Positions 2,184 to 51,559 of a stretch of 64,000 bases of DNA are shown here, piece after piece. The notes under the pieces were generated by a model that was given only the letters and a program-made list of their open reading frames with translations, was not told where the DNA came from and ran no database searches. The translations under genes and the position numbers were made by a program. Within the stretch, counting starts at the first letter, position 1; each line of letters opens with the position of its first letter. Source of the DNA: Thermomicrobiales bacterium (lineage in GTDB: Bacteria; Chloroflexota; Chloroflexia; Thermomicrobiales; UBA6265); NCBI GenBank assembly GCA_041390745.1, contig JAWKPJ010000001.1, positions 355,322 to 419,321 on the forward strand. The letters run 5' to 3'.

Positions 2184-2374
2184 ACCGCACCCGCTCGTCG
2201 CGAATCAGCCCTGGGTCGCCGCCACCCCCTGCACCAGGATCGACTGCGCGGCTGTTTCCCGATTGGCTGTCGCGACCGCTTGACCCTGATAGCCTGGTCC
2301 ATACAATTGGGGCGCGCGCACGACTCCACCCGGACGCGATGCCAGAACGTGCCTTCAGTTTCCGGGAGTGCCGC

Positions 2375-8826: not shown

Positions 8827-9588
8827 CTAGACGAGGCGCAAACCCGCGCGCGGATCCGTTGTCCGCGCCGTGTTCAGCGTGCGGTTGAGCTCACCCAGCG
8901 ACTGCCGCTGTCGCCCGTGCTCATCGAAGTTCTCCGGCGCCAGCCAGGTCTGGTAGTTGGCGCGCAGGGCCGGCCACTCATGGTCCAGGATGGAGAACCA
9001 CGCCGTGTCCCGGTTGTGCCCCTTGACGATAATGTGCTGGTAGAACGTGCCCTCATAGAGGAAGCCAAGACGCGTGGCGGCGGTTCGCGAGCCGGCGTTG
9101 GCCGCGTTGCACTTCCACTCCATGCGCCGGTAGGCCAATCGGGTCATTGGCTCATCGATCAACAGGAACAGCGCCTCGGTGGCCGCAACGGTTTGCTGCA
9201 ATCCGGGGCCAAACCAGATGTGCCCGATTTCGATAACGCCATTCTTCTCGTCGATTCGCATCTGGGACGCCACACCCTCGGCCTTGCCGCTGGCCTTTGG
9301 CCGGATGGCGAAGAAGAGCGGGTCCGCGCTGGCTTCCTGCCCGGTCAGATGCTTGCGCATCTGGTCCTCGCTTGTGAACGGTCCGTACGGCAGGTAGTCC
9401 CAGATGCGCGTGCGCTGGGGATCGCCGCTCGCGGCCTGGAACAGGTCTGCTGCGTGACGTTCGACGCTGAGAGGCTCCAGCGTGACGTACCGTCCCTCGA
9501 TCACCTCGTGCAACGGACGCTCGCGCGGGTCAGGATCGGGCACCGGCGCGGTCGAGGGCGGAGTTGTTCGAGACAGTTCTGTGGCCAT
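8827..9588 (-). CDS. GNAT family N-acetyltransferase (RimJ/RimL-like)
   Basis: Acetyltransf_3-like core (LEPLSVERHAADLF...IGHIWFGPGLQQT...RMEWKCNAANAGSRTAATRLGFLYEGT). AAGGA RBS before the MATELS start. Confidence 0.75.
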   Translation of the reverse strand: MATELSRTTPPSTAPVPDPDPRERPLHEVIEGRYVTLEPLSVERHAADLFQAASGDPQRTRIWDYLPYGPFTSEDQMRKHLTGQEASADPLFFAIRPKASGKAEGVASQMRIDEKNGVIEIGHIWFGPGLQQTVAATEALFLLIDEPMTRLAYRRMEWKCNAANAGSRTAATRLGFLYEGTFYQHIIVKGHNRDTAWFSILDHEWPALRANYQTWLAPENFDEHGRQRQSLGELNRTLNTARTTDPRAGLRLV

Positions 9589-9678
9589 CAAACATCCTTG
9601 CACGCAACGGTCCGGAGCACGTCGAGACTCCGGCAGGGTGCCGGGAGTGTAAGCGGCAACGAACCCTCCTGCACGCCG

Positions 9679-12001: not shown

Positions 12002-12709
12002 TCACGGCTGCTCCCGCACCCAGAGCGGCATGTCGCACACGTGCTGGTAACCGATGCGCGCGTAGATGCGCTGCCCGGCCTCCGACGCAATCACCATGGC
12101 CGGCAGATCAGGCTCGGCTATCGTCGATGTCCACGCCAGGGCCGAGCCAAAACCGCGTCCCCGCGCCTCCGGCAGCGTGGCCAGAAAACTGAGGTGGCTC
12201 AGGCCGTGGGAGACAAAGGTGGCAGCAGCGCTCACCGGGCGTCCGTCCTCCCAACCCAGCCAGAAGCGGAAGCGCCGATCTTCCAGCAATGAAGAACCGA
12301 ACGCCGATTCCGCCGGCAGGCCCTGCAACTCTGGCGCCGGGAACCCCTCAATCATGACCTGTTCAAAGTGATGCAGATCGCCAATGCTTCGCCCCTCCGA
12401 AATGCGCAGGCCCGGCGCCGGCAGGGCGTGCCCGCCAGGACGCCGCAGCATCAGGGGCATTTGCTCCACACAGGCCCAGCCGAATGCCGTCAGGTCTGGC
12501 GGTGGCCAGGCAGCAAACATGAAGACCGTGCCCGGGTACGAGACGCCGCCAAACGCGAAGAATGCCTCCAGGGCGGCCAGCCGTGACGACACTGCGGCCT
12601 CGTCGAGCGGCTCCAGAAGTACGACGCTGTTGAGCAGCCCGGCCGGCCGCCCGGCGTCTGTCGCAACGAAGGCCGGCTTGCGCAGGATGCGGCCGCCGCT
12701 TGATCGCAC
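12002..12709 (-). CDS. GNAT family acetyltransferase
   Basis: C-terminal GNAT core (VSHGLSHLSFLATLPEARGRGFGSALAWTSTIAEPDLPAMVIASEAGQRIYARIGY). Confidence 0.65.
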   Translation of the reverse strand: MRSSGGRILRKPAFVATDAGRPAGLLNSVVLLEPLDEAAVSSRLAALEAFFAFGGVSYPGTVFMFAAWPPPDLTAFGWACVEQMPLMLRRPGGHALPAPGLRISEGRSIGDLHHFEQVMIEGFPAPELQGLPAESAFGSSLLEDRRFRFWLGWEDGRPVSAAATFVSHGLSHLSFLATLPEARGRGFGSALAWTSTIAEPDLPAMVIASEAGQRIYARIGYQHVCDMPLWVREQP

Positions 12710-12757: not shown

Positions 12758-15271
12758 TCAAACTGGTCGCTCACGTGGGGGCTCCAACAGCCCCTGGGCC
12801 AGCGTGAGAACCGGCACGAGGCCCAGGTTTCGACCACGCTCTGCCGCAACCGCGAACTCCGTGCCGGGCATGGCCGCCCGCAGCGACTCGACCAGCGCGG
12901 CGCACTCTGCCGCGCCGAGCACACTGGCTGGGCCAACCACCTGCTCCCGCAAGGCGGCCGCCGCCGCAAGCAGCGTGACTGCCGAATCAGCTGCCCTGGT
13001 TGCCGCCGCGACTGCTGCGGCCACTTCAACACAGGCGGCCAGACCCTTCTGATCGCCACTACGCTGCCAGTGACGCAGACTCTCGCGCAGCCAGGCGCGC
13101 GCGGCGCCGAGGTCGCCCTGCTGCAGCGCCACGCGGGCCAGCACCTGCTGGGCGCCAGCCCGCGCGGACCACGCGACATGCCCCTCGGTCAGCCCCAGCG
13201 CCTGAGCAGCATGGCGCGCGGCCTCGTCCAGCTTGCCCTGCCAGCGTTGCGCCACCGCAATGTTGCAGAGGACAGCCGCCCGGTCGCGGGCAGCGGTATC
13301 CGCCGCTGCCGGTCGCAGCGCCGCTGCAAACCGCGCTTCCGCCAGGACAGCGTCGCCCCGGTCCAGCGCCACCATCCCAAGGACCGCGTGAGAGGCGAAG
13401 GCCGCCCAGGTTTCGTCGAACTCCTCGAAGACCTCCAGGGAGCGCGCTATCTCCGCCTCCGCTTCGGCCGCCCGGCCAAGTCCCTGTGCGATGTTCCCGC
13501 GCACGAACCCCACGAACGCGATCTCGCGCGCATCCCCGCAGGCTGCCGCCAACCGGCCAGCCTCCGCAACGTGGCGCCCGGCGCGCTCGAACTCCCCGAG
13601 GTTGGTCGCGATCCAGGCAGCGTGCCGCGCCAGCCGGCCGCGCAAAAGATCCTGCTCGACATGGCGGTCCAGCGCGACCTCGCACTGCGCCAAACCTTCA
13701 GCGCCGTAGCCACAGAGTGCCCAGAAACTCCCGAGCGTATCCAGCAGGCGCACGGCTCCCGGCAGATCATTGGCGTGCAACCAGCGCAACGCGGCTCTCA
13801 GGTTCGGCAGATCGCGCTCGAGGCGGCGCAGTCGCGCATCGAACCCCGCGTCTCGCCGCCAGAGGTGGGCCGTCTCGGCGGCGTGCTGCATTGCCGCCGC
13901 GTGCTCCGCCTCCACTCGCTCGCGCACCGGGCTGGCCTGGAGACGGCTGGCGGCAACCACGCGAATCGTTTCCAGCAGCCGATAGCGAGGCTCGTCCGCG
14001 GCAGCGTCCTCCCGCTGCACCAGGTTTCGCTGAATGAGCGTTCCCAGCAGCGCCAGCGCGTCTGCCGCTGCGCCACCCCGGCCACTGGCGCTTTCCGCTG
14101 CCGCCCAGATCTGCTGCGCGGCCTCCAGCGAAAAGCTGCCTTCAAACACGCCCACAGCGTGGAACATGCGCCGCTCTGCGGCAGACAGCAGGCCCTCGCT
14201 CCAGGCAACGACGTTATCGAGCGTCCGCTGGCGCTCCGGAAGATCGCGCAGCATGCCTGGCAATGGCGAGCGTGCCTCCAGCCGTCGCACGAGCATGGCT
14301 GGCGAGTGCGCCGCCGTGAGGGAGGCCGCCAACTCGAGAGCGAGCGGGAGCCCATCCAACTGCTGGCAAAGCCATGCCACGTCCTGTGCGTTGTGCTCCG
14401 TTACCTCGAAGCCAGGATCGACGGCCCGGGCGCGATCGGCAAACAGGCGCACCGCCGGGAAGATCAAGGCTTCCCCGGCGGATACAGCGGCAGGTTCCGG
14501 CGCCGGCAACGGCGCAACCGGCAGGCAGCGTTCGGCCCGCAACAGCAGAGGTTCGCGGCTGGTGACGAGCCAGGCGACAGCAGGCAGCAGCGCCGCGAGC
14601 TGCGCAATTACCGGAGCCGCATCAATCACTTGCTCGAAGTTGTCCAGCAGGAGACACAGCCGCTGCTCCAGCAAGCTCCGGGCAATCGTCTCCGGCGTCT
14701 GATGCCCGGGCGATGCTGCCCGGCCCAGCGCAGCCGCCACCGCCGGCAACACCTGTTGCGCGTCCTGCTCCGGCGCGAGATCGACAAACACCACCCCGTC
14801 CGGGAAGCGCTGCGTCACCGCGTCATCGTGCGCCAGGGCGAGCGCAAGCCGCGTCTTGCCGGACCCGCCCGGACCGGTCAGCGTGATGACGCCCGGTGTG
14901 GGCTCCAGGAGCCAGCCGCGCAGGCGCTCTGTCTCGTCAGCGCGGCCAAGGAGCGGCCCCGCAGGCAACGGCGCGCGGCTCACTGCGGGCATGACGGATG
15001 TCGCCCGTGAGGAACTGGCGGACGGCGACAAGGCACGCGCCGCCAACAGCAGCGCGGCGCGCTCCTCGGGAGTCACCGCCAGAGCCGCAAGCAGCCGCTG
15101 CACGGTCTCTCGCTGCGGCCGGCCCCGCGCCCCGCGCTCCAGGTCACTCAGCCCACGCACGCTCAGCCCGGCCCGCTCCGCCAGCTCGGCCTGCGTCAGG
15201 CCGCCGGCAAGGCGCCGGGCGCGGAGCAGGTCGCCGAAACTGCTGTCGAGGGGGAAGAGATCTGGCGGCAT
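12758..15271 (-). CDS. XRE-family HTH STAND regulator (N-terminal HTH_XRE + NB-ARC-like ATPase + TPR)
   Basis: N-terminal LRARRLAGGLTQAELAERAGLSVRGLSDLERG (XRE HTH). P-loop LTGPGGSGKTRLALALA, LLLDNFEQVIDAAP, long TPR/helical C-terminus. Paralogous core to the 2375-4993 gene. Confidence 0.85.
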   Translation of the reverse strand: MPPDLFPLDSSFGDLLRARRLAGGLTQAELAERAGLSVRGLSDLERGARGRPQRETVQRLLAALAVTPEERAALLLAARALSPSASSSRATSVMPAVSRAPLPAGPLLGRADETERLRGWLLEPTPGVITLTGPGGSGKTRLALALAHDDAVTQRFPDGVVFVDLAPEQDAQQVLPAVAAALGRAASPGHQTPETIARSLLEQRLCLLLDNFEQVIDAAPVIAQLAALLPAVAWLVTSREPLLLRAERCLPVAPLPAPEPAAVSAGEALIFPAVRLFADRARAVDPGFEVTEHNAQDVAWLCQQLDGLPLALELAASLTAAHSPAMLVRRLEARSPLPGMLRDLPERQRTLDNVVAWSEGLLSAAERRMFHAVGVFEGSFSLEAAQQIWAAAESASGRGGAAADALALLGTLIQRNLVQREDAAADEPRYRLLETIRVVAASRLQASPVRERVEAEHAAAMQHAAETAHLWRRDAGFDARLRRLERDLPNLRAALRWLHANDLPGAVRLLDTLGSFWALCGYGAEGLAQCEVALDRHVEQDLLRGRLARHAAWIATNLGEFERAGRHVAEAGRLAAACGDAREIAFVGFVRGNIAQGLGRAAEAEAEIARSLEVFEEFDETWAAFASHAVLGMVALDRGDAVLAEARFAAALRPAAADTAARDRAAVLCNIAVAQRWQGKLDEAARHAAQALGLTEGHVAWSARAGAQQVLARVALQQGDLGAARAWLRESLRHWQRSGDQKGLAACVEVAAAVAAATRAADSAVTLLAAAAALREQVVGPASVLGAAECAALVESLRAAMPGTEFAVAAERGRNLGLVPVLTLAQGLLEPPRERPV

Positions 15272-15637: not shown

Positions 15638-16126
15638 ATGAGCGAACGAGCGAACGCGCTGGCCGATGCCTTGCAACTGGCAACGGATGACGTTGACCGC
15701 TTTATCGGCGAAGTATCCGATGAGGGTTGGCAGGCGACCTGCCCTGGCGAGCAGTGCACTGTTGCCGCCCTGATCTGCCATATCGGCAACGCCTACACGG
15801 GCATGCTGGACAGTATCATCAAGCCGGTGGCGGAAGGCGCCCCGCGCCCGGAGTTTTCACCAGAGGATCTGCACCGCTGGAACGCCCAGGCTGCGCAAAT
15901 GTACGCGGGCGCCAGCCGAGAGCAGGCCCGGGAAATCCTGCGCACGGCCTCCGCGCCCACCATCTCCTACGTCCGCGGCCTCTCTGACGAGCAACTGGCG
16001 ACGTCGTTTGATCTCCCCCAGCGGCCGGAGCCTGTCACCGTGGAAGCCATGGTCATCCACGGCCTGACCGGTCACCCGCGCGAACACCTGGCCAGTGCCC
16101 GCGCTGCAGCCGGCAGCGTGGGCTAG
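15638..16126 (+). CDS. DinB-family / MDMPI_N-like protein
   Basis: 162 aa. Conserved His-containing helices (ALICHIGNAY...MVIHGLTGHPREHL) typical of the DinB_2 superfamily. Confidence 0.6.
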   Translation: MSERANALADALQLATDDVDRFIGEVSDEGWQATCPGEQCTVAALICHIGNAYTGMLDSIIKPVAEGAPRPEFSPEDLHRWNAQAAQMYAGASREQAREILRTASAPTISYVRGLSDEQLATSFDLPQRPEPVTVEAMVIHGLTGHPREHLASARAAAGSVG

Positions 16127-16168: not shown

Positions 16169-18865
16169 ATGTCCCGCCACGCTGCCCCTCCGAGCGACCT
16201 CCAGGACATCGCCGAGCCGAATGGCGCGGAGCCACATCAGGACCGGTCCTCGCTGGTCCCCTCTCGCCGGCAGTACCTCGACCTGAAGGCGCAACACCCC
16301 GAAGCCATCCTGCTCTACCGCCTCGGGGACTTCTACGAGACGTTCGATGAGGACGCCCGCACCCTCGCTCGCGACGCGCGAGTGGCCCTCACCACCCGCT
16401 CCTTTGGCCGCTCTGGCCGCTCCCCGATGGCGGGCATTCCCCACCACGCGCTGAACCACTACCTCGCCCGGTTGCTGGCTGCCGGACACACGGTCGCCAT
16501 CGCCGAGCAGATGACCCCGCCTGGCAAGGGCCTCGTCGAACGCGCCGTCACCCGCGTTCTCTCTCCCGGCACCGTGTCGGACCCTGCGCTGCTCCCAGCC
16601 GGGGAGAGCCGCTACCTGGCGGCGCTGCATCACCACGGCGAAGCCTGGGGCCTGGCCTGGGTCGATGTCAGCACGGGCGAGTTTGCGGTCGCGGAGTTCA
16701 GCGGCGAGGGCGCCCCCGCGCGCCTGGCCGAAGAGGTGGCGCGCATTAACCCTGCGGAAACCCTGATCCCGGACGACGCGCCCGAGCCGCAAGGGAACAT
16801 CCCGCCCGGCCACCTGACGCGGCTGGAGACCTGGCGCTGGGAGCCGGGCCGTGGTGGCGACCTGCTGTGCACGCAGTTTCGAATCCACTCGCTGGCCGGG
16901 TTCGGCTGCGCTGCCATGCCCGCCGCCATCGGCGCGGCGGGCGCAATTCTTGGCTACCTGGAGCGAACCAACCCCGCCCTGCTCGTGCTGCTGACCGGCC
17001 TCCGCGTCGAGCAGCCGGGCCGCTGGGTCGGGCTGGACGCCGCCACCCGGCGCAACCTGGAACTCACGCGCTCCCTCGGCACCGGCGGCTCACGCGGCAG
17101 CCTGCTCGGTGTGCTCGACCTGACCCGGACGGCCATGGGAGCACGCGCCCTGCGGCGGCTCGTGACCCAGCCACTGCAGGACCTGGCAGAGATCGAGCGC
17201 CGGCAGCAAATCGTTACCACGCTTGTGCATGCGCCAACCGCCCGTGCCTCAGTGCGGGACGCGCTGGCCGCCGTCGGCGACCTGGAGCGGCTGGTTGGCC
17301 GCATTGCCGACCGCACTGCCACCGCCCGCGAGTTCGTCACACTCGCCTCTGCCCTGCACCGCCTCCCCGTGATCGCGGAGCTGCTGGCGCCCTCAGGTTT
17401 ACGCCATGCGTGCGGCGCAGATTGCGCGGATATCGCGGCCCTGCTCGACGACGCGGTGGCCGAAGACCACACCGGCGCGGCTGCCATCCGCCCTGGCTTC
17501 GCCCCGGACCTCGACGCGGCCCACGCCGCCGTGCGCGAAACGCGGGAGTGGCTCGCCTCGCTGGAAGCGCGCGAGCGAGAGCGCACGGGCATTCGCTCCC
17601 TCAAGGTCGGCTTCAACAAGGTTTTCGGGTACTACATCGAAATCACCCGCGCCAACCTGGCCCTCACCCCCGCCGACTACACGCGCAAGCAAACCATCGC
17701 CAACGGCGAGCGCTTTATCACCGGACCCCTCAAGGACGCCGAAGCGCGAGTGCTGGCTGCAGACGAAGAGATTGCGGCTCGGGAGCGCGCCGCCCTCCAC
17801 AGACTGAGCGCCCTGGTCACGGAGGAAGCGGGCCGCCTTTCCGCCACCGCCCGCGCCCTGGCCGAACTGGACGCGCTGCTCTCGCTGGCGGAAGTCGCCG
17901 CCCGCAACGACTGGAGCGCGCCAATTCTGGATGATGGCGACCTCCTGGCGATCAGCGGCGGGCGCCACCCGGTGGTGGAAGCCCACCTCAGCGGAGAGCC
18001 CTTCATCCCGAACGATTGCCGCCTCGGCGGTGACGGCCCGCGTCAGGCTGTCGTCACCGGGCCGAACATGGGCGGCAAATCGACCTATCTCCGGCAGGTG
18101 GCAGTCATCGCACTGCTGGCGCAGATCGGCTCCTGGGTCCCCGCCGCCCACGCTCGGGTCGGCCTCGTGGACCGCATTTTCACCCGCGTTGGCGCCCAGG
18201 ATGATCTGGCGCGCGGCCACTCCACGTTCATGGCCGAGATGGTTGAAACCGCCGCCATCCTGCATCAGGCCACCTCTCGCTCCCTGCTCATCCTCGATGA
18301 GGTTGGCCGGGGCACCAGCACCGATGACGGCCTCGCTATCGCTCGCGCCACCCTGGAGGACATCAGCCAGCGCATCGGCGCGCGCGCCCTCTTCGCCACG
18401 CACTATCTGGAGCTGACCAGCATCAGCGAGAACCTGCCTGCCATCACCAACCTGCATGTTGCCGCCCTGGAGCGCGACGGCCGCGTGGTGTTCCTGTACG
18501 CCGTACAACCCGGCGCCGCCGACCGCGCCTACGGCGTGCAGGTCGCGCGCCTCGCTGGTCTCCCACCCTGGGTCGCCGACCGCGCCGACATCCTGCTGCG
18601 TGCTTCCCAACGAGAAGCACCCGCCATCCTGCCGCCACCCCCGGTCACGCCAACACCACCTCTCGCGCTCTGCGAGGACCGCGCACCCTGGCTGGAGCCC
18701 GCACCTCCGTCCGAGCCGACACCCGCCGACCAGCTGGCCGCCGCCCTCCTGGCCCTCGACCTGGACAGGGTGACCGCGCGAGAGGCGCTGCAGTGGATGT
18801 GGGAGCATCAGGACTTGCTTCGCTCACGAGATACAGCGGCAACTGATGACGCTTTCGGTGACTGA
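16169..18865 (+). CDS. mutS: DNA mismatch repair protein MutS
   Basis: 898 aa. N-terminal mismatch-binding ILLYRLGDFYETFDEDA, Walker A GPNMGGKSTYLRQ, DE motif LLILDEVGRGTSTDDG, HTH ...YGVQVARLAGLP. Confidence 0.95.
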   Translation: MSRHAAPPSDLQDIAEPNGAEPHQDRSSLVPSRRQYLDLKAQHPEAILLYRLGDFYETFDEDARTLARDARVALTTRSFGRSGRSPMAGIPHHALNHYLARLLAAGHTVAIAEQMTPPGKGLVERAVTRVLSPGTVSDPALLPAGESRYLAALHHHGEAWGLAWVDVSTGEFAVAEFSGEGAPARLAEEVARINPAETLIPDDAPEPQGNIPPGHLTRLETWRWEPGRGGDLLCTQFRIHSLAGFGCAAMPAAIGAAGAILGYLERTNPALLVLLTGLRVEQPGRWVGLDAATRRNLELTRSLGTGGSRGSLLGVLDLTRTAMGARALRRLVTQPLQDLAEIERRQQIVTTLVHAPTARASVRDALAAVGDLERLVGRIADRTATAREFVTLASALHRLPVIAELLAPSGLRHACGADCADIAALLDDAVAEDHTGAAAIRPGFAPDLDAAHAAVRETREWLASLEARERERTGIRSLKVGFNKVFGYYIEITRANLALTPADYTRKQTIANGERFITGPLKDAEARVLAADEEIAARERAALHRLSALVTEEAGRLSATARALAELDALLSLAEVAARNDWSAPILDDGDLLAISGGRHPVVEAHLSGEPFIPNDCRLGGDGPRQAVVTGPNMGGKSTYLRQVAVIALLAQIGSWVPAAHARVGLVDRIFTRVGAQDDLARGHSTFMAEMVETAAILHQATSRSLLILDEVGRGTSTDDGLAIARATLEDISQRIGARALFATHYLELTSISENLPAITNLHVAALERDGRVVFLYAVQPGAADRAYGVQVARLAGLPPWVADRADILLRASQREAPAILPPPPVTPTPPLALCEDRAPWLEPAPPSEPTPADQLAAALLALDLDRVTAREALQWMWEHQDLLRSRDTAATDDAFGD

Positions 18866-19760
18866 ACGCCGCATCACCCTCCCCCGCATCGAGACCGCCG
18901 CGGCAGCCATTGACCCCGTGTTCCTCCACACCCCCCAGTGGGTCTGCGAGCCGCTGGCGGATGACCTCGGCGTACGGGTGCTGCTGAAGGTGGAGGTGCT
19001 GAACCCGATTCGCTCCTTTGAGGGACGCGGCGCGGATTGGCTGGTGCAGAACCTGCCGCACGGCGCGGAAATCGTGTGCGCCTCGGCCGGGAACTTCGGC
19101 CGGGCCAGAGCGTTCGCCGCCCGGGCACGCGGGGCGCCGCTCATCATTCACGCGGAGCCAGGACGGCAAACCCGCTCCAAATCGAGCGCATGCGGGCGCC
19201 GGGCGCACCTGTGGTCCTGGCCGGCGCCTGCTTCGACCCGCCAAGGCAATTGGCCAGGCCGAAGCGGCACAGCGCAGCGTGCGCTTCAACGAGGACAACC
19301 GCGACCCGGAGCCGGCTGAATGCGCGGGCACGATGGCGCTGGGGGTTGGCAACCTGCCAGGGCCAGCCCGATAGGCGCTTCATGCCGCCTGGCAACGGCG
19401 CCATGCTGGCCGGGTCGCTACTATCACCTGAGTCCAGCTGACCCCCACGCGAGTGACTGCGGCGGTGGCGGCCATGCCGCCCACAATGGCAGAACCGCGT
19501 CAACGTGAAAAGCCCGTCACGCATTGCCACCATCGCGGGTGGTATTGGCGTGCGCAGTCAGGCGCCGGCGGCCGGCTGCGCACGCCGGCCGGGTCAATGA
19601 CGACCTCCCTGGGCCTGACAGCCGCATCCTTACCGCCATCAAGCTGCTGCACCCGCACACCGGCGTCGTCGCGGAGCCGTCGGAAATGACCGGGCTCGCG
19701 AGGTTCAGGCAGGTGTCATCCTGCCTGCACGGGCATGGCATCGCCACCATCGTCAGGGGG
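18846..19760 (+). pseudogene. Threonine/serine dehydratase-like fold-type II PLP enzyme, multiply frameshifted (pseudogene)
   Basis: Recognisable TD/DsdA-like segments lie in three different frames: TPQWVCEPLADDLGVRVLLKVEVLNPIRSFEGRGA (PLP-Lys region), then ...LQIERMRAPGAPVVLAGACFD, then ...GTMALGV, DCGGGGHAA (Gly-rich loop), ...IKLLHPHTGVVAEPS. At least three frame changes. Confidence 0.6.
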
Positions 19761-19855
19761 AAACCTGACGTTCGCGCAAATGCGAGAATGGCGGCGCGAC
19801 CAGACAGAATGAGCAGGTTGAGGACAACAGAAGGATCGGCAACGTGGCGCAGGCA

Positions 19856-22325: not shown

Positions 22326-23144
22326 ATGTCCTCCACCATGCCTCTCCGGACCCCCACCTTCGCTATCGGTGATATCCATGGTCAGTACGAAAAGGTCACC
22401 CACGATCTGCGGGAGGCAGCGTTGCTCTCCAGCGACTTGCACTGGGCCGGCGCCGACAGCGCCCTCTGGCTGATTGGCGACCTTGTAGATCGCGGTCCAG
22501 ACGGCATCAAGGTCATTGACCTCGCCATGCGCCTCCAACGGGAGGCAGCCGCGGCGGGCGGGAGCACCACCACCCTCATCGGAAACCACGATATCCTGCT
22601 CCTGGCGGCCTATCACTTCGGGGACTGGCCGCGCAAACGGCGAGCGGAATCATTCACCGAGATCTGGGAACGCAACGGCGGAAACCCCGAGGATCTGGAC
22701 CTTCTGAACGGCTCGCAAGTGGCCTGGCTCTCCAACCTGCCGGCCATGGCGCACTGCGGACCCTACCTGCTCACCCACGGCGACACCATGCTCTACACCC
22801 GCTACGGGCGAACCGTGGCGGACCTCAACCAGAACATTCAGGACTTGCGGCACACCATGGATCCCGTGGCGTGGTATCGCCTCCTCAGCGAGTTCAGTGA
22901 GCACCGCGTGTTTACCGGGTCCACTGGCCCCAGGCGCGCCCGCGAGTTTCTGCGCCATTTCGGCGGGCAACGCATTGTGCATGGGCACACGCCCGTCAGC
23001 CGCATTACGGGCGAGAATCCGGCGCAGGTCACAGGTCCGCTGATCTACGCGGACGGTCTCTGCATCGACGTCGATGGCGGCATGTATCTCGGCGGACCGG
23101 GGTTCGTCTACCGCCTGCCTGATCCTGTCCCGGACGAGGCGTAG
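22326..23144 (+). CDS. Metallophosphoesterase (PPP family; ApaH/PrpE-like)
   Basis: PPP motifs GDIHGQ, GDLVDRGPDG, GNHD, ...HGHTP. Confidence 0.8.
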   Translation: MSSTMPLRTPTFAIGDIHGQYEKVTHDLREAALLSSDLHWAGADSALWLIGDLVDRGPDGIKVIDLAMRLQREAAAAGGSTTTLIGNHDILLLAAYHFGDWPRKRRAESFTEIWERNGGNPEDLDLLNGSQVAWLSNLPAMAHCGPYLLTHGDTMLYTRYGRTVADLNQNIQDLRHTMDPVAWYRLLSEFSEHRVFTGSTGPRRAREFLRHFGGQRIVHGHTPVSRITGENPAQVTGPLIYADGLCIDVDGGMYLGGPGFVYRLPDPVPDEA

Positions 23145-23568
23145 CCAGAGCCTCTCGCGCAGGCGAGCCGTCCCAGAGCGTGGCTCGCTCGGTCAGCTCC
23201 AGGACATGGCCGTCAGGGTCCGTCACGTAGAGCGCCAGGTTGCCAGGCGCAAACTCGTGGTGCTCGGTCTGATGGCCCGCCGCGTTGATGCGCGCCGCAA
23301 ACGCCGGGAGCGAGCCCGGCGGGACGAGCAGCGCGAAGTGGACGTGGGCTCCGCCGCGTCCGCCATGGATGGCGTTGGGGCCACCCGTCTCCACCGGCCA
23401 GAGCCCAAGGAACCCCTCGCGGCCCAGCGTCAGAAACGTCGCCTGCCGCTCCTCCCCCCATCGGTCTGCAATTGGCAGGCCGATCACCTCATGGTAGAAG
23501 CGCTCGGACCGCTCCAGGTCGGAAACTTCCAGTACCATCTCGAAGAGCCCAAGGGTGGCAGGCGTCAT
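23029..23568 (-). CDS. VOC family protein (glyoxalase/bleomycin-resistance/dioxygenase fold)
   Basis: FEMVLEVSDLERSERFYHEVIGLPI...VHFALLV...GNLALYVTDPDGHVLEL. The long Arg-rich tail overlaps the 3' end of 22326-23144 and may not be real. Confidence 0.7.
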   Translation of the reverse strand: MTPATLGLFEMVLEVSDLERSERFYHEVIGLPIADRWGEERQATFLTLGREGFLGLWPVETGGPNAIHGGRGGAHVHFALLVPPGSLPAFAARINAAGHQTEHHEFAPGNLALYVTDPDGHVLELTERATLWDGSPAREALATPRPGQDQAGGRRTPVRRDTCRHRRRCRDRPRRSADL

Positions 23569-23987
23569 CCGCGTCGCTCCAGCTTCAGCACCGGAATGGT
23601 GCGCTCCAGCTTCTGCTCATGGTCCACAAAGGTCGGGAACTGCGTCGCGTGGGCGCGAAACACGCGCTCCCGTTCCGCCCCCGTGACCTCCGTGGCGTGC
23701 ACCGGGACAGTCTCGGGGCCCTTCTCGATCAGGTATTCCGGGTTCGCCACGACGTTGCGATGCCAAGCCGGATGGCGCTCGCTGCCGTGCGCCGAACCGA
23801 AGACATACCTTGCGCCATCTTCCAACCGCGCACGCAAGGGCACGATGTGCACGCGTCCACTGCGGGCGGCGATAGTGGGCAGGAGCAGCATCGGCGGCGG
23901 GTTATCGTACGGCGCGGCCACCTCACCGGCGTTTGCCCTGAACTCGGCGGTCACCGGTGCATTCCACTCCTGTTCCTGGGTCGGCAT
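23565..23987 (-). CDS. Deazaflavin (F420)-dependent nitroreductase family protein (Ddn-like, DUF385)
   Basis: 140 aa; ...LLLPTIAARSGRVHIVPL...YVFGSAHGSERHPAWHRNVVANPEYLIEKGPETVPVHATEVTGAERERVF, the Ddn/PPOX-class pattern. Stop overlaps the downstream start (ATGA). Confidence 0.7.
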   Translation of the reverse strand: MPTQEQEWNAPVTAEFRANAGEVAAPYDNPPPMLLLPTIAARSGRVHIVPLRARLEDGARYVFGSAHGSERHPAWHRNVVANPEYLIEKGPETVPVHATEVTGAERERVFRAHATQFPTFVDHEQKLERTIPVLKLERRG

Positions 23988-24000
23988 GGTCGTTTCTCCC

Positions 24001-24618
24001 TCACTGACGGAGGCTCAGGACCGGCGTGTGCGCGCGCAGGCGCGAGGTCACGTCCAGCAACTCCGCCACCATCGCCTGCACGCGCTGCTGGACCCGGGGG
24101 TCGGCCACCTCGCCATCCTGTACAGCGCTACCACTGGCAATCACCGACGTCGGCAGCACCAGCCCGTTCAGGCCCCGCGCGCTGTGATCGAGCGCGGTGA
24201 TCACGTTCCCGGCGGAACTGCCACCCAGCGCCATCAGCGCAATCGGTTTCCCCTGCAGGTAGCGCGGTGTGTCATTAACCAGGAAGTTCAGGCAGTCGAA
24301 TGCATTCTTGACCGCTCCGCTCAGCGTGCCGTGATAGGTCGGCGAGCAGAAGACGAATGCGTCAGCCTCCCGGGCGGAGTCCAGCAAGCTCCGAAGCGAC
24401 GTTGGATAGTCCTCCAGGGGCAGATCGTCGTCGTACATCGGCAGCGCCATCTGCCGCACATCGCCCAGGGCCACCCCGGCGCCAGCGGTCTCTGCCACCC
24501 GTAGTGCGTGGCGCAGCAGGCTCAGGCTCCGTGAACCAGCGCGCATGCTCCCCCCGATGCCAAGCACGCGCACGGGCGCGCCGTCCAGAGAATCGTGATC
24601 GGCCAGCAAACTCATCAT
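24001..24618 (-). CDS. NAD(P)H-dependent FMN reductase family protein
   Basis: Flavodoxin-like VRVLGIGGSMRAGSRS...ADAFVFCSPTYHGTLSGAVKNAFD. Start overlaps the NAT stop (ATGA). Confidence 0.8.
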   Translation of the reverse strand: MMSLLADHDSLDGAPVRVLGIGGSMRAGSRSLSLLRHALRVAETAGAGVALGDVRQMALPMYDDDLPLEDYPTSLRSLLDSAREADAFVFCSPTYHGTLSGAVKNAFDCLNFLVNDTPRYLQGKPIALMALGGSSAGNVITALDHSARGLNGLVLPTSVIASGSAVQDGEVADPRVQQRVQAMVAELLDVTSRLRAHTPVLSLRQ

Positions 24619-25409
24619 GCCTCCTCGAACAGTCGCTCGGTGGTGAGATCGATGCCAAAATGGGTGTCGAGCGCAGCCTGCCAGGCGGCGTCGCCGGTTA
24701 ACCGTTCCTCGTGACGATGGCCGTTCCGGGTCGTGATCAGGAGATCATCCGCCAACGTGACCCGGCCGTCGTCCGTCAGGAGGGTGCAGATGCGCTTCCG
24801 GGTGAAGCCGGAATCGGGCGAGGTCTGGTGATACCGGCAGCCCTCCTCGAAATCAGTCAACTGTCGGGGCTTCCAGGTGAAGCGGTAGACCCGCTCCCAC
24901 TCCTCAGCCGGGCCCTGCCGCCAGAGCCACAGGTCAGGCTCTTCCAATTGCAGCCGGAAGCTGGCCCCGGCTGCTGGCTGCGCCTGCACGGCATCGCAGC
25001 CAATGGCCAGCGGGCTGACAAAGCCATTCCGCCCTCCCGCCACATCGGCAAGCACCGCCGCCATGCCTGGCGCCGCCACCCGCAGAACAAGGTGATCAAA
25101 CTCGATGGGATCCCGGCCATCAGGCAGTGGGAACTGGGCGGCCAGCAGCGTAACCTCGTAGCCCATCTCGCGCAGCAACGCTGCCAGGAGACCATTCAGT
25201 TCGTAGCAGAAGCCGCCCCGCCGCCGCTTCACCACCTTGGCGTAGAGGTCTTCCTCCGCCAGCGAGACAGGCCTGCCCAGGTGAATGTCCAGATTCTCGA
25301 ACGGCACGCGCCGCAGGTGCGCCAGGTGCAGGTCTTGCAGTACGGACAGGGTCGGCGCAACCGGGCCGTCATACCCAATGCGGGCGAGGTAGGCAGAAAC
25401 GTCGAGCAC
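24615..25409 (-). CDS. Arylamine N-acetyltransferase (NAT)
   Basis: Canonical NAT N-terminus YLARIGY...HLRRVPFENLDIHLG and catalytic Cys block RRGGFCYELNGL. Confidence 0.85.
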   Translation of the reverse strand: MLDVSAYLARIGYDGPVAPTLSVLQDLHLAHLRRVPFENLDIHLGRPVSLAEEDLYAKVVKRRRGGFCYELNGLLAALLREMGYEVTLLAAQFPLPDGRDPIEFDHLVLRVAAPGMAAVLADVAGGRNGFVSPLAIGCDAVQAQPAAGASFRLQLEEPDLWLWRQGPAEEWERVYRFTWKPRQLTDFEEGCRYHQTSPDSGFTRKRICTLLTDDGRVTLADDLLITTRNGHRHEERLTGDAAWQAALDTHFGIDLTTERLFEEA

Positions 25410-25449: not shown

Positions 25450-26988
25450 TCAGGCGGCGTCTGCCGCGCCAGGCGGCGGGTTTACAGGAGGCCGAGCGAA
25501 CTGCGGCAACCCGCGGGCGGTGAAGAAACCCACCAGGACTGCGAGCAGCATCAGGCCATAATGGAAGGTGAGCGCATGCTGGACCGAGTTGCCCTGCGCA
25601 TGCACCACCGCCACCAGCGCGCCACCGATGCCGGCGCCCAGGCCAGAACCCAGCACGCTCGCCAATTGCATGGAGGACGACGCGTTCCCCTCCTGCCCCG
25701 GCTCCGCCAGTTCCAGCATGGTCAGGTTCAGCGTGATGTAGGCAAACCCCATGCCGAGCCCGGCGACACCCCAGCCGAGCGGCCCCAGGAGCATCGGTGT
25801 TTGCGGCAGCAACACCGAGGCAATGACCACAATGGCAACGGAGATGAGCGTGAGTCCGATCCACTCCATCGTGCGGCGCGAGACCCGCATCGACACGCGC
25901 GCCTGGATCCACGAGCCCGAGGACCAGGCAATGGTGCCCGCCGTCAGCGCCAGCCCGGCAAAACCGATCGAGGCGCCACGCACCTCCACCAGCATGAGCG
26001 GCACGAAGGCATCCACCCCGAAGAAGGCCAGGTTGATCAGCCCCATGGTTGCAATGGCCGCCGGCAGGCCCGGGGCCGCTCGCAACGTCCCCACTGGCAA
26101 CAGCCTTCGCAGGGACGGCACAGCCAGCACACCCCCGGCGACGATCATGGCTCCCGCGACAACAACGCCGGGCACACTGACGCCGCCGAAGTCCAGACCT
26201 GGCGCGCTGGCGCTGCCCAGCATCAGGCCGGCCCCGGCAGACAACGCGACCGAAAGCAGCACCCGTTGTCTTGCCTGCGGGTGTTGGGCGCCCCGCGGCA
26301 CCGTGCGCAGCGAGGGCAGCGCCAGCAGCGCCGCCAGCAGCGCCATCGGAGTCAGCACCAGGAAGACAGCGCGCCAGCCGAATGCCTCTGCCATCAGACC
26401 GGAGATAGCGGGGCCGATCAGTCCTGGAACTACCCAGCCAGTAGACATCAGGGCCAGCATGCGGGGCTTGGCTGCCGCCGGAAACCCGCGCCCGACGGCC
26501 ACATACGCCGAGGAAAAAATGCAGCCGCCCCCGAAACCCTGCAGGGCCCGGCCCAGAATGAGGACTTCCATGGAGGGGGCAAACCCGCCCAGCAAGAGTC
26601 CACTGGAGAAGAAGACCACACCGATGGCGAAAGGCAGCGCCGGGCCACGTCCGTCGGAGATGAGCCCACCCACCACAATGCCGACCAGTTGGGTCAGGAG
26701 ATAGGCCGAGAACGCCCAGCCGTAGAAGTTCAGACCACCCAGGTCGGCCACGATGGCCGGCAGGATGGTGGCCACCGCCAGGGCCTGGAAGGCCACCGCC
26801 ACGATGGTCAGCATCAATCCTGCCGTCAGGCCCGCCCGCCCGCTGGCAAAGGGGTTGGTCTCGTCTGGCGTGTGCGGCTCTGGCCCCGCTTGAGGCGGCG
26901 GCTCAGCAAGGGCCCGCGGCGCCAGCACGGCGCCTTCCGGCGGAGACGCCAGCTCTGCGATTTCCTCTGAACTGAGTGATGTCCCCAT
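25450..26988 (-). CDS. MFS transporter, DHA2-like (14 TMS)
   Basis: About 14 predicted TM helices; MFS motif GLISDGRGPALP. A start at 26997 is also possible. Confidence 0.85.
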   Translation of the reverse strand: MGTSLSSEEIAELASPPEGAVLAPRALAEPPPQAGPEPHTPDETNPFASGRAGLTAGLMLTIVAVAFQALAVATILPAIVADLGGLNFYGWAFSAYLLTQLVGIVVGGLISDGRGPALPFAIGVVFFSSGLLLGGFAPSMEVLILGRALQGFGGGCIFSSAYVAVGRGFPAAAKPRMLALMSTGWVVPGLIGPAISGLMAEAFGWRAVFLVLTPMALLAALLALPSLRTVPRGAQHPQARQRVLLSVALSAGAGLMLGSASAPGLDFGGVSVPGVVVAGAMIVAGGVLAVPSLRRLLPVGTLRAAPGLPAAIATMGLINLAFFGVDAFVPLMLVEVRGASIGFAGLALTAGTIAWSSGSWIQARVSMRVSRRTMEWIGLTLISVAIVVIASVLLPQTPMLLGPLGWGVAGLGMGFAYITLNLTMLELAEPGQEGNASSSMQLASVLGSGLGAGIGGALVAVVHAQGNSVQHALTFHYGLMLLAVLVGFFTARGLPQFARPPVNPPPGAADAA

Positions 26989-27139
26989 GGCCTCCACGCT
27001 CCCGCAAGTGGATCTGCACGATACACCCGCCTTGCGATTAAAACAAGTATCTTCTGCTTTTATTCCGCAAAACTGCGCAATGCCGCTATACTCGCGAGCG
27101 TACTTTCCCGCCGTGCAGTCTCTGAGTGGTTGTCACTGC

Positions 27140-37426: not shown

Positions 37427-38052
37427 CCTTCGACGGTCACCACCACAGTTTCCAGCGGATCGACGGTGCAGACGACCGGATAGCGCCCCGGCTCCGGAAA
37501 GCGCTGGACAAACGTCTGCCTGGCTCCCACCAGAAAGGGTCCGGCGCGATGCTCGACGTCATCCAGATTCTGGATGGTGATCACCGCTTCAGCGGGCGAA
37601 GCAAAGCGAATGTCGGTGGGTATGGCGATCGCCGAATCAAAGCCGGGCCGCGCGATGGTGTTGCTTGCTCCGGCCGGAATCGTGAAGTGCAGGCCCGGCG
37701 CGGGCGCAAGCCCGGTCCGCCCGGTAATTGCCCCGGTGGCCAGGAGCAGGCCCACCAGCGCAACAACGCAGAGCCCGGCAATCAGCGCAATGTTCCCGGC
37801 TCCGGGCCCCGGCGCACGTTCCGCAGCGGCGTTGGCGGCGCCGGCCCCAGCCCCTGGAACCCGCTCACAGGAATGTCGTTCGTCTCCACTGGTCTTTCCA
37901 TCACGAGATCGACAGACTGGCTGCCCACCCAGGCGAGCAGCCAGCCATTCGTTGACCAGATCAGGAATGCGGCGTGGCCGCTGGCGTCCCCATGTCGCCC
38001 ATGCCCGTCGCCGGAGCAGGTCGTGACCAGGGATCGCTGATGGTGAGGTCAC
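37423..38052 (-). CDS. Membrane-anchored protein with cupredoxin-like C-terminal domain (copper ligands not conserved)
   Basis: TM helix NIALIAGLCVVALVGLLLATGAI, then about 95 aa with a cupredoxin-like pattern (ITIQNLDDVEHRAG...PEPGRYPVVCTVDP). The Arg-rich N-terminal 45 aa overlaps the PCuAC 3' end and may be a start-site artefact. Confidence 0.4.
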   Translation of the reverse strand: MTSPSAIPGHDLLRRRAWATWGRQRPRRIPDLVNEWLAARLGGQPVCRSRDGKTSGDERHSCERVPGAGAGAANAAAERAPGPGAGNIALIAGLCVVALVGLLLATGAITGRTGLAPAPGLHFTIPAGASNTIARPGFDSAIAIPTDIRFASPAEAVITIQNLDDVEHRAGPFLVGARQTFVQRFPEPGRYPVVCTVDPLETVVVTVEG

Positions 38053-38547
38053 CCACCGTGATCGGCGCAGCCGGGGCAGCGCCCGCCGCCAGTTCGGCGC
38101 GCGGCCGTACCGTCACGGAGACAGTTACGTCGCCGGCCTTCTCAAAATGCAGAGTCAGGTCATACGTCTTGCCGTTGGTCAGGTCCTCCCGGAGCCCGAA
38201 CATCATGATGTGGTACCCGCCCGGCTCCAGAGCTTCTTCGCCGCCTGCGGGGATGACGAGTCCATCGCTCAGGGGCCGCATTTCCATGACCCTGTCTACC
38301 TCCGCCATCTCATGGACCTCCACGGCGTCGGCGACCTCCGTCTCCCCACCCAGGAGCACGTCATCTTCGGCGCCGCCATTCTGGATGAGCATGAAGGCGG
38401 CGGCGGAGCCAGTGAGGCGCCGCTCTTCGTGGCCGGCCCCGGCGGAGGGGTGGCGGCGCCATGGTCATACGCCTGCGTGAGGGGGCTGCCAAACAGGCCA
38501 CTACCTACTGCCACGAACGCGACTGCCAGAGCAACATTGCGAAACAT
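37961..38547 (-). CDS. Copper chaperone PCu(A)C (DUF461), interrupted by one frameshift between signal peptide and core
   Basis: Signal peptide MFRNVALAVAFVAVGSGLFGSPLTQA in one frame (from 38547). The PCuAC core continues in another frame (…HEERRLTGSAAAFMLIQNGGAEDDVLLGG...VEVHEM...IPAGG...GGYHIMMFGL...LTLHFEKAG). The C-terminus carries a second DLTISDPWSRPAP motif. Confidence 0.6.
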
Positions 38548-38595
38548 GGTCCTGATTCCTTTCTGAGAGTCACCCGGCGCGCGCCGGATGCATCG

Positions 38596-39276
38596 TCATG
38601 AGTTGAGCAAATGACGGATGTCCTGCGCCATCAGCGCCGGGTCCATGCCGTAGGGAAACGTGAGGGCCAGCCGGCCCTGTGGATCGATCACGTACGTCTG
38701 TGTGGAGTGATCGAGGAGGTACTTTGTCGCGGAATCGGGGTACTCGACGCGATGCACGAGAACTCCGTAGTCCCGCTCCACCTGCTCCGTTTGCGCCGCG
38801 TCGCCGCGCAGACCGATGAACTCTGGATCGAAAAACGCCAGGTACTCTTTCAGCTTCTCCTGGGTATCGCGTTCCGGATCAATGGTCACCAGCACGAACT
38901 TCACCCGGTCAGCGTCGGCGCCAAGCTCCTCCTTGACCACCTGGTAATCGATCAACGTGGTCGGGCAGATATCCGGGCAGGTGGTGTATCCGAAGTAGAC
39001 CACCACCGCGTTGCCCTTGAGCTGATCGAGCGAGAATGGCTTGCCATTCGTGTCGGTCAGGTTGAGCGGCTTCGCGGCTTCTGGCTGCGCGTAGAAGCCA
39101 CCGTTATAGGTGTACGGCGCCTCCTGGCTGCGAAACACCAGAAACACCACCGCCGCCACTGCGGCGATCGCCAGGACTACGCCGCCAATCAGCGCACCCG
39201 TACCGGATGACCGCCGCCCTGCCGCCGGGACGCGGTCAGGCGCGTCAGCGGGTCCAGGCTCTGTTTGCGTACTCAT
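38596..39276 (-). CDS. SCO1/SenC family copper chaperone (cytochrome oxidase assembly)
   Basis: GGAGGA RBS then ATG (MSTQTEP). TM anchor, thioredoxin-fold with CPDICP (CxxxC) and a conserved His (...HSTQTYVIDPQGRL). Confidence 0.9.
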   Translation of the reverse strand: MSTQTEPGPADAPDRVPAAGRRSSGTGALIGGVVLAIAAVAAVVFLVFRSQEAPYTYNGGFYAQPEAAKPLNLTDTNGKPFSLDQLKGNAVVVYFGYTTCPDICPTTLIDYQVVKEELGADADRVKFVLVTIDPERDTQEKLKEYLAFFDPEFIGLRGDAAQTEQVERDYGVLVHRVEYPDSATKYLLDHSTQTYVIDPQGRLALTFPYGMDPALMAQDIRHLLNS

Positions 39277-39301
39277 ATGTTCCTCCTGTTCTGTTGCATG
39301 C

Positions 39302-48039: not shown

Positions 48040-48376
48040 GCAATCACCTGCTTGCCTCCTGCATCGTCAGGCGATGAACGGTCGAAAAACACTCCGGGAC
48101 TGCCTCACGACGCGGACGTCGGGCCGGCTCCAGCGAAGCTGACAATGAAGCCCTTGTCGGCGGGCGGAGACGGGTTGATCCGTTCTAACTCCACCGGAAT
48201 CAACAGAGCGGTAAGGCACGGCAAAGCGCGGGTGAGGTTGGTGGATCGGGCTGGCGTTCCACGACGAAGTAGTGGGCTGTTCCGCATCGCGACGAGGATA
48301 AGATCGGTCCCCGGCGCCGGATGGCCATCCGCCATGGTGAAGGTAACGCTCAGGCTGGTATCGGACGCACCGGTCA

Positions 48377-50206: not shown

Positions 50207-50301
50207 CGGGAACCTCCGGGGTGAGACGATCTGTACGCTGGCCAGGGCGAAGCACGATCGCCAGGTTGAGGTATACGGCGGTGGCTGTGTGATGGACCCC
50301 G

Positions 50302-50339: not shown

Positions 50340-50408
50340 GATCAGGTGCGCGGCGAACCAGTATGGCGCTGGCGCAGGTTTATGGGATAACCAATCATGG
50401 GGTGGCTC

Positions 50409-51482: not shown

Positions 51483-51559
51483 GCGGAACCTCCACAGCAT
51501 CCGACCATGGCCTTCGCTTGTTGCTGGGGTGAGCGTATGGGCGTCAGGACGCGTCGCAG

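Follow-up and report, generated by a model that had tools for sequence, protein, structure and literature searches.

A 64-kb window of DNA, which is the whole stretch that was analysed, from the metagenome-assembled genome (MAG) of a soil Thermomicrobiales bacterium (Chloroflexota) contains a cluster of genes for an arylamine N-acetyltransferase (NAT), a reductase of the FMN_red family, an FDOR-A family reductase of the F420-dependent type, a VOC-family metalloenzyme, and an MFS efflux permease, positioned next to a divergent gene for a SufR-like winged helix-turn-helix regulator. We propose that the cluster is a modular operon for the detoxification of redox-active aromatic compounds, which would be induced by redox stress under the control of the regulator acting as a [4Fe-4S] transcription factor. 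Judged from the sequences, the proposal has roughly an even chance of being correct, and our confidence in any specific substrate of the operon is much lower. The proposal builds on the identities of the genes, the arrangement of the operon, the conservation of residues at catalytic and ligand positions, a conserved operator, and the lineage-wide co-occurrence of the genes, the content of which is modular. The stable core of the locus consists of the regulator, the operator, and NAT, usually together with FMN_red, and not of NAT and a Ddn-like nitroreductase, which an earlier note on this DNA had linked as the centre of the cluster. The best matches of the NAT and the regulator belong to Thermomicrobiales/Chloroflexota MAGs, with sequence identities of up to 99%, and an exact-sequence look-up of the NAT returned no record.

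Operon architecture, operator, and conservation

The NAT, FMN_red, FDOR-A, and VOC genes are located on the minus strand at the coordinates given in the earlier note, and all four of its family assignments score above the respective Pfam gathering thresholds (Table 1). The two ATGA start/stop overlaps that it described are also present in the sequence: one joins NAT to FMN_red (24615–24618), and the other joins FDOR-A to VOC (23565–23568). The spacer between FMN_red and FDOR-A is 13 nt long and contains the sequence GGGAG. Overlaps of four nucleotides are ordinary in this DNA, where they occur at six of the 37 same-strand junctions of the window, and they point to operon organization and to nothing unusual. 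The same note regarded the four coupled genes as the complete operon and placed a divergently oriented DHA2 exporter and a helix-turn-helix regulator next to it. The coupling of the four genes and the divergent position of the regulator gene are borne out by the sequence; however, the MFS gene is on the strand of the cluster, 40 nt upstream of NAT, and the gap between the two genes contains GAGG ahead of the GTG start codon of NAT. In a related locus, L091, the end of MFS and the start of NAT share 4 nt. Therefore, the transcription unit probably comprises five genes in the order MFS-NAT-FMN_red-FDOR-A-VOC, with MFS as the first gene. A terminator scan identified two terminator-like sites, both inside the MFS gene and fewer than expected by chance, and an Rfam search of the window did not yield a match.

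Table 1 Components of the locus. Gene families were scored by Pfam gathering thresholds and NCBIfam curated cut-offs, which are given in brackets.
Feature	Coordinates	Strand	Remarks
MFS efflux permease, DHA2-like 14-transmembrane-segment type	25450..26997	-	PF07690, 131.7 bits; start GTG 26997 or ATG 26988
NAT, 264 aa	24615..25409	-	PF00797, 226 bits (22.8)
FMN_red, 205 aa	24001..24618	-	PF03358, 101.7 bits (24)
FDOR-A split beta-barrel, 140 aa	23565..23987	-	PF04075, 76.6 bits (22); TIGR00026, 66.7 bits (46.35)
VOC/glyoxalase-fold metalloenzyme, 179 aa	23029..23568	-	PF00903, 34.9 bits (20.6); core to ~23131, tail 23029-23130
SufR-like (COG2345) winged helix-turn-helix regulator, 215 aa	27140..27787	+	open reading frame open from 26987
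Divergent promoter/operator region, conserved	27015..27096	.	dyad 27036-27065

The intergenic region upstream of the operon contains an element of approximately 80 nt, which is more conserved than the adjoining coding DNA and near-invariant in five close genomes. We scanned 1.53 Mb of sequence, including 12 regulator loci, and the element was present once per regulator locus in 11 of them, including those with regulators only 71–77% identical, whereas the remaining locus (L088) contained a variant. The element was absent elsewhere in the scanned sequence. Its core is an A/T-rich dyad with the family consensus GAATAAAG-N14-CTTTATTC, which, when up to two mismatches were allowed, had seven matches at the regulator site and none elsewhere. 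The dyad of the window, GATTAAAACAAGTATCTTCTGCTTTTATTC, differs from the consensus at three positions. Because of these mismatches, an inverted-repeat finder did not report anything in the intergenic region of the window, and the dyad was recognized only by cross-genome comparison.

Promoter hexamers in this region were predicted by eye. The putative promoter of the operon, on the minus strand, has a −35 box TTGTTT (27046–27041) separated by 17 nt from a −10 box TATCGT (27023–27018), and that of the regulator, on the plus strand, has a −35 box TTCCGC (27063–27068) separated by 18 nt from a −10 box TATACT (27087–27092). The half-sites of the dyad overlap the predicted −35 boxes of both back-to-back promoters, which is the geometry that would be expected for a repressor of the two. 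A generic sigma-70 scan did not detect a promoter, and such a scan is uninformative for the phylum Chloroflexota.

The element was also used as a DNA probe on metagenomes, and 16 of its 43 matches were linked to a regulator gene. The first gene after the operator in the recovered loci encoded MFS, PNPOx, NAT, FMN_red, VOC, or a short-chain dehydrogenase. In locus L109 (6878–7657, minus strand), the regulator and operator face one short-chain dehydrogenase gene, which is followed by queA. The target set of the operator can thus shrink to a single oxidoreductase.

The same five genes and the regulator are present in three relatives, the NATs of which are 81% (L001), 72% (L083), and 71% (L084) identical to that of the window, and the co-conservation of the four coupled genes, which the earlier note suggested checking, is therefore found in these genomes. 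Gene content was tabulated for 13 loci with at least 3 kb of sequence on the divergent side of the regulator. NAT is present in eleven of them, FMN_red, VOC, and MFS in nine each, intact FDOR-A in six, and PNPOx in four. The regulator is divergent from a NAT-containing operon in L001, L081, L083–L089, and L091, and NAT is missing from L109 and from the visible part of L104. Loci L081 and L082 (77% NAT identity) have intact MFS, NAT, FMN_red, and VOC genes. Expanded operons in L085 (7533–16897) and L091 (633–7819) encode PNPOx, a small open reading frame, MFS, NAT, FMN_red, PF17648, FDOR-A, a Rieske protein, and VOC. The gene order is PNPOx-NAT-MFS-Rieske-?-VOC in L086 and PNPOx…MFS-NAT in L087, and L088 retains only NAT-FMN_red. 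Locus L089, with a regulator 71% identical, is in a different genomic setting without the adjoining pyruvate kinase gene, and its regulator is divergent from a VOC-NAT-FMN_red operon with 4-nt overlaps. The small PF17648 'luciferase domain' protein is fused to FDOR-A in L085. In the 609-residue protein of the expanded operons, only an N-terminal Rieske domain is recognizable, and the PNPOx-type protein has a split-barrel fold.

The comparison was extended to 79 distant NAT loci (42–51% identity, 1.26 Mb in total) from Acidobacteriota, other Chloroflexota, and other bacteria. Searches with tblastn and profile hidden Markov models identified no homolog of FMN_red, FDOR-A, PNPOx, or the regulator at these loci, and one VOC gene that was unlinked. 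A general association of NATs with reductases across bacteria was therefore rejected. Since the partner genes accompany NAT in Thermomicrobiales relatives and at none of the 79 distant loci, the association is real but clade-specific. The conservation of the neighbourhood holds for the regulator, operator, and NAT in most of the Thermomicrobiales relatives and does not extend to the distant loci.

The modularity of gene order and content, in which the Rieske, PF17648, and PNPOx genes are variably present and the first gene differs between loci, could also indicate that the locus is a variable region where detoxification cassettes assort, and that its genes are co-regulated but independent stress genes with no hand-off from a reductase to NAT. 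The quinone regulons of Firmicutes, which act largely in parallel (PMC6798810), provide a precedent for such an arrangement. However, the 4-nt overlap of NAT and FMN_red is retained in L081, L083, L088, and L089, where the identity of the NATs falls to as little as 56%; it persists across rearrangements and from 88% to 52% FMN_red identity, which suggests stoichiometric co-expression of the two proteins. Furthermore, this alternative overlaps with the detoxification operon that we propose, which permits the enzymes to act in parallel. We consider the fully independent cassettes improbable, although by no means negligible.

The regulator and the enzymes

The regulator gene probably starts at ATG 27140 and not at 26987, because its relatives are 212–218 residues long and the upstream part of the reading frame is frameshifted in L083 and cannot be aligned in L088. 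This start leaves an intergenic region of approximately 140 bp. The regulator aligns to the full SufR_cyano model (TIGR02702) with a score of 105.5 bits, whereas the cut-off is 178.8, and it also matches Pfam families HTH_20 and HTH_24. A PDB sequence search with the regulator did not yield a match. The motif C162-x12-C175-x2-E178-x25-C204 and the GRP AT-hook P63-G64-R65-P66-R67 are invariant in seven orthologs, which are 70–93% identical. In the structure of SufR from Mycobacterium tuberculosis determined by cryo-electron microscopy, the [4Fe-4S] cluster is bound by C179-x12-C192-x2-E195-x24-C220, and a central GRP AT-hook reads A/T-rich DNA (bioRxiv 10.64898/2025.12.26.696629); the ligands were previously numbered C203/C216/C244 (PMC6034842). 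The spacing of the putative ligands is essentially identical, and the divergent helix-turn-helix protein is, by its motifs, predicted to be a SufR-like [4Fe-4S] sensor. This prediction led us to reframe the gene cluster as a redox-stress response.

Regulators of the family COG2345 are widespread, and targets are known only for SufR and ArnR, both of which bind A/T-rich operators of about 30 bp (bioRxiv 10.64898/2025.12.26.696629). The regulator from the window has in common with SufR and ArnR the winged helix-turn-helix, the GRP AT-hook, and the C-x12-C-x2-E-x~25-C ligands. The A/T-rich operator of SufR and ArnR is located in the promoter that the regulator shares with its target, as is the dyad in the window. 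In contrast, the known target of SufR is sufBCDS and that of ArnR is narKGHJI/hmp, whereas the conserved divergent neighbour of the regulator in the window is a xenobiotic-type operon.

The regulator might instead be a genuine SufR, in which case the operon would function in iron or Fe-S homeostasis, with, for instance, FMN_red as a ferric or flavin reductase that mobilizes iron to repair clusters and the MFS permease as an exporter of a chelator. This explanation would account for the full-length SufR_cyano match, the SufR ligand motif, and the annotation of the homologs by JGI, which is based on KEGG Orthology and names them 'suf operon transcriptional repressor'. The FMN_red family includes ferric reductases, and among the weaker PDB matches of the FMN_red protein is 3u7r, the ferric reductase FerB of Paracoccus denitrificans. 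However, the score of the regulator is well below the SufR cut-off, and the flanks that were read at ten regulator-linked loci, which extend approximately 8–10 kb from the regulator in both directions, do not contain a suf gene. Characterized SufRs adjoin suf operons (bioRxiv 10.64898/2025.12.26.696629), and NAT, FDOR-A, and VOC are without a known role in Fe-S assembly. The score and the lack of suf genes in these flanks speak against a bona fide repressor of sufBCDS, although control of a remote suf operon is conceivable, and there is only a small chance that the operon serves iron homeostasis.

More distant COG2345 homologs, 32–34% identical and annotated as ArsR/SmtB, are encoded by plasmids pTPRO7 of Salipiger (L136, 4303–6880) and pA of Ancylobacter (L137, 1–5612). 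On both plasmids, the homolog and superoxide dismutase genes are divergently oriented, and genes for MFS or DoxX/RND efflux are close by. The context of a Tistrella copy is uninformative. The plasmid collection contained distant homologs only and no Thermomicrobium relative of the regulator or NAT. The superoxide dismutase-paired homologs of alphaproteobacterial plasmids are independent support for the redox-stress reading and suggest that the COG2345 family may have a wider role in oxidative-stress control.

Residues 20–257 of the NAT span positions 1–237 of the 240 positions of the PF00797 model. Residues C68, H106, and D122 do not vary among 15 homologs, and they correspond in position to the cysteine of the RGGxCYE motif (RGGYCYE), the histidine, and the aspartate of the DVGxG motif (DVGFG) of the NAT from Mycobacterium smegmatis (1w6f). 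The closest solved structures are those of the M. smegmatis and M. tuberculosis NATs, with an E value of ~1e-39 and a full-length score of 140 bits. The window protein is thus a fairly distant member relative to the mycobacterial NATs, with the same fold and Cys-His-Asp triad. It belongs to the arylamine N-acetyltransferase family and may acetylate arylamines, hydrazines, or N-hydroxyarylamines with acetyl-CoA. An orthologue of NhoA was rejected, as the score against the NhoA equivalog model is 118.6 bits compared to 493. The nat gene of M. tuberculosis is part of a cholesterol-catabolism (hsa) operon, and it is not known to adjoin reductase genes, an MFS pump gene, or a gene for a SufR-like regulator.

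NAT-fold enzymes also function in biosynthesis as amide synthases of the GdmF and RifF types, and tailoring and resistance genes typically include those for MFS exporters and reductases. The operon could therefore tailor and export an endogenous aromatic amine or quinone metabolite, such as a pigment or an antibiotic. However, GdmF is a weak match with 73 bits only, and the NAT is far closer to the mycobacterial arylamine NATs. Furthermore, neither the window nor the relative loci contain polyketide synthase, nonribosomal peptide synthetase, aminoshikimate, or other core biosynthetic genes. An amide synthase role of the NAT was rejected based on the similarity ranking and the lack of biosynthetic context, and the production of an endogenous metabolite is very improbable.

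The structures closest to FMN_red are those of PA1204 (1rtt), ArsH, AzoR, YhdA, ChrR, and YieF, with scores of 57–43 bits, ahead of SsuE with 31 bits. The protein is therefore probably of the quinone/azo/chromate-reductase type. The top NCBIfam match is MsuE, with 69 bits, well under the cut-off of 212. The earlier note had assigned to FMN_red the supply of reduced flavin, which the ranking of the structures does not favour, and the cluster does not contain a partner monooxygenase that would use free reduced flavin. FMN_red is more likely to act as a direct reductase of substrates. The closest structures belong to the azoreductase/NQO superfamily, known from Pseudomonas aeruginosa (PA1204) and including ArsH, YieF/ChrR, and YhdA, the members of which reduce azo dyes, quinones, and sometimes nitro compounds. 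The FMN_red of the window differs in being translationally coupled to a NAT. The reduction of azo or nitro compounds followed by N-acetylation is reportedly an established two-step route, from work of the Sim laboratory, and we know of no system that encodes a NAT together with such an azoreductase/NQO-type reductase. If the cluster includes a producer of arylamines, it is more plausibly FMN_red, because its superfamily includes azo, quinone, and some nitro reductases (PMC4051601).

The FDOR-A protein exceeds the cut-offs of both PF04075 and TIGR00026, in agreement with the previous assignment to the F420-type enzymes. Its use of F420 is plausible because of this membership and because F420 production was biochemically confirmed in Chloroflexi, with Thermomicrobium roseum being an abundant producer (PMC8498797). 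The nearest structures are 8d4w (E 7e-27) and MSMEG_3356 (3h96, E 4e-24), with scores of 89–98 bits, whereas Ddn chains score 52–55 bits (E ~1e-13). Therefore, the label 'Ddn-like nitroreductase' of the earlier note is true at the family level only, and a Ddn orthologue was rejected. MSMEG_3356 is an FDOR-A1 coumarin/aflatoxin reductase. The mycobacterial FDOR-A1 enzymes, including MSMEG_3356 (FDR-A) and Ddn, are PF04075 split beta-barrels of about 140 residues, like the window protein. They catalyse the promiscuous F420H2-driven reduction of quinones and coumarins and have a proposed role in detoxification (PMC8498797). According to a 2021 review, no F420H2-dependent reductase from bacteria outside Actinobacteria had been studied experimentally (PMC8498797), and the locus offers a setting for the study of one from Chloroflexota.

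FDOR-A is the least retained member of the cluster. It is absent from L086, L087, L088, and L089, and in L081 (11406–11614) and L082 (1929–2137) it is a frameshifted pseudogene with an internal deletion, of which residues 1–36 and 117–139 are left. The ATGA junction to VOC is kept in these two loci despite the decay of FDOR-A, and NAT, FMN_red, and VOC are intact. FDOR-A is thus an accessory and the most dispensable member of its cluster, unlike in the setting of the mycobacterial FDOR-A1 enzymes.

These results bear on the pathway that was suggested in the earlier note, in which a dedicated nitroaromatic route would proceed by Ddn-like nitroreduction to an arylamine and its acetylation by NAT, with FMN_red supplying flavin and VOC carrying out ring or adduct chemistry. 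Nitroreduction followed by N- or O-acetylation is a well-known sequence, exemplified by the Salmonella nitroreductase/O-acetyltransferase tester strains. All four protein families are present and coupled, the FDOR-A assignment stands, F420 is made by Thermomicrobium, and the four genes are together in L001, L083, and L084. However, the characterized FDOR-A enzymes transfer hydride from F420H2 to quinones, coumarins, and enones, which may aid detoxification, and the physiological role of Ddn appears to be the reduction of menaquinone (PMC8498797). The promiscuous reaction of Ddn with nitroimidazoles is thought to give des-nitro products with HNO/HNO2 and not arylamines (PMC8498797), which argues against the chain from nitroreduction to NAT. 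Moreover, MSMEG_3356 is a closer match of the window protein than Ddn, the cluster is without a flavin-dependent monooxygenase, and NAT persists in the loci where FDOR-A is deleted or absent. The dedicated nitroaromatic pathway is therefore unlikely, and the link of a Ddn-type enzyme to NAT is not the core of the cluster.

The predicted metal ligands of the VOC protein, E10, H77, and E124, are conserved in seven orthologs and align with H7, H64, and E110 of FosA. Identity as FosA was rejected, as the best score of 47.3 bits falls short of the cut-off of 290 and a glutamate occupies the position of FosA His7. The VOC protein is 147–148 residues long in relatives. In the window, the normal stop at codon 147 is replaced by CAG (23128–23130), and the loss of the stop adds an arginine-rich tail of 32 residues. 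As a result, the gene overlaps the convergent metallophosphoesterase gene (22326–23144, plus strand) by 116 nt, and the tail is antisense to the 3′ end of that gene. The predicted catalytic core is untouched by the loss of the stop.

The MFS protein of approximately 512 residues is a member of the MFS_1 family, and it scores 99.8 bits against the EmrB/DHA2 model TIGR00711, under the cut-off of 230. The description 'DHA2-like' is reasonable for this predicted transporter, and the DHA2 membership given in the earlier note is not demonstrated.

Other genes of the window

A PLP-dependent (PALP) gene at 18843–19803 (plus strand) is split over three frames, with lower identity after residue 105. The gene is intact (about 327 residues) between mutS and a class-IV aminotransferase gene in L081, L083, and L084, and the copy in the window represents either a pseudogene or an error of the assembly at this place. 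Two large STAND-type regulators with NB-ARC/AAA and TPR domains are encoded at 2339–4993 (plus strand) and 12758–15271 (minus strand), one with a LuxR/GerE output domain and the other with an N-terminal HTH_3/XRE domain. Genes of the DinB_2/MDMPI_N family, putatively for thiol-dependent enzymes, are located at 756–1190 and 15638–16126 (both plus strand), and three GNAT acetyltransferase genes (8827–9603, 12002–12709, and 55970–56581) are near the genes of this family. A copper/thiol-redox cluster at 37961–40576 (minus strand) encodes a PCuAC chaperone, SCO1/SenC, and a fused AhpC/TSA-redoxin-DsbD transmembrane protein. The region 47230–51500 (minus strand) encodes a PHP-domain protein, a 220-residue protein without a family, and two tandem ComF-like phosphoribosyltransferases (PF15610).

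Proposed function and relation to known systems

Based on the predicted functions of the proteins and the geometry of the operator, a mechanism of the operon can be proposed. The detoxification-type reading of the cluster in the earlier note is supported. The SufR-like factor would repress both promoters by binding to the 30-bp A/T-rich dyad over the two −35 boxes. The cluster of the regulator may be damaged or oxidized by aromatic compounds that are electrophilic or undergo redox cycling, or by oxidative or nitrosative stress arising from them, and the operon would then be derepressed. FMN_red, using NAD(P)H, and FDOR-A, using F420H2, would then carry out two-electron or hydride reduction of quinones, quinone-imines, azo compounds, or nitro compounds, which would avoid semiquinone cycling. 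NAT may acetylate arylamine, aminophenol, or hydrazine groups, whether formed by these reductions or incoming, and so block their re-oxidation. The VOC enzyme presumably handles an electrophile, a thiol adduct, or a ring, and the MFS pump would export the products. The enzymes may work in parallel on different toxins and not strictly sequentially. In this mechanism, the signal that induces the operon, the compounds on which the enzymes act, the order of the reactions, and the binding of the regulator are predictions.

Several observations weigh against the proposed operon function. The main uncertainty is whether the regulator is a dedicated paralog or a housekeeping SufR. It is always present, and its conservation exceeds that of the enzymes, as would be expected of a core gene that borders a variable region. 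The dyad of the window deviates from the consensus, and the promoter hexamers are our own reading, which the generic scan did not recover. The variable gene content, with NAT missing from two loci and FDOR-A from many, argues against an obligatory multi-step pathway. A Pfam survey of the approximately 55 genes of the 64-kb window did not identify F420 biosynthesis genes (fbiC/cofGH, cofC/D/E) or LLM/FGD genes, and the availability of F420 rests on the lineage. MsuE as the best NCBIfam match leaves a possible role of FMN_red as a flavin supplier. The function of the VOC protein is essentially without assignment, and the protein carries the additional tail in this genome. We tentatively suggest that the SufR-like factor of Thermomicrobiales is dedicated to sensing redox-active aromatic toxins, not to Fe-S assembly, and controls the modular operon through an AT-hook operator; this more specific claim is possible, but its chances are clearly below even.

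The closest documented design is that of the quinone regulons of Firmicutes. The repressors MhqR, YodB, and CatR of Bacillus subtilis and QsrR and MhqR of Staphylococcus aureus, which sense redox changes or electrophiles, control FMN-dependent quinone and azo reductases, nitroreductases, and VOC dioxygenases, the contributions of which to resistance against quinones and quinone-like antimicrobials are additive (PMC6798810). The composition of the operon in the window is similar, with FMN_red and VOC genes under the predicted control of a redox-type sensor. However, the Firmicute regulators are MarR or DUF24 thiol or ligand sensors, whereas the regulator in the window is a SufR-like Fe-S protein by prediction. 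The Firmicute VOC proteins are two-domain ring-cleavage dioxygenases, whereas that of the window is a single module of 147 residues, which is FosA-like at a low score. The members of the Firmicute quinone regulons listed in PMC6798810 do not include NAT, F420-type FDOR-A, or MFS proteins, all three of which are encoded by the operon in the window.

All the components of the operon belong to known families, and the combination of a sensor with reductases, a VOC enzyme, and a pump is a familiar one. The finding is thus incremental and not categorical. New are the presence of a NAT within such a module, translationally coupled to a reductase of the probable quinone/azo type, the optional members FDOR-A, putatively F420-dependent, and PNPOx in Chloroflexota, and the possible control of the module by a SufR-like Fe-S factor that would act through the conserved AT-rich dyad. 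The roles of bacterial NATs are mostly obscure, and the finding that NAT is paired across the lineage with a probable quinone/azo-type reductase, next to a predicted redox sensor, leads to the hypothesis that the compounds are reduced, capped at the amine, and exported. If the SufR-like factor is dedicated to redox-active aromatic toxins, as tentatively suggested above, bacterial NAT would gain a defined physiological partner in the reductase to which it is translationally coupled, and the F420-dependent FDOR-A of Chloroflexota would gain a defined physiological context. The conserved operator and the divergent detoxification operon constitute a candidate new regulon of COG2345, which would be only the third known target set of the family after suf and nar/hmp (bioRxiv 10.64898/2025.12.26.696629).

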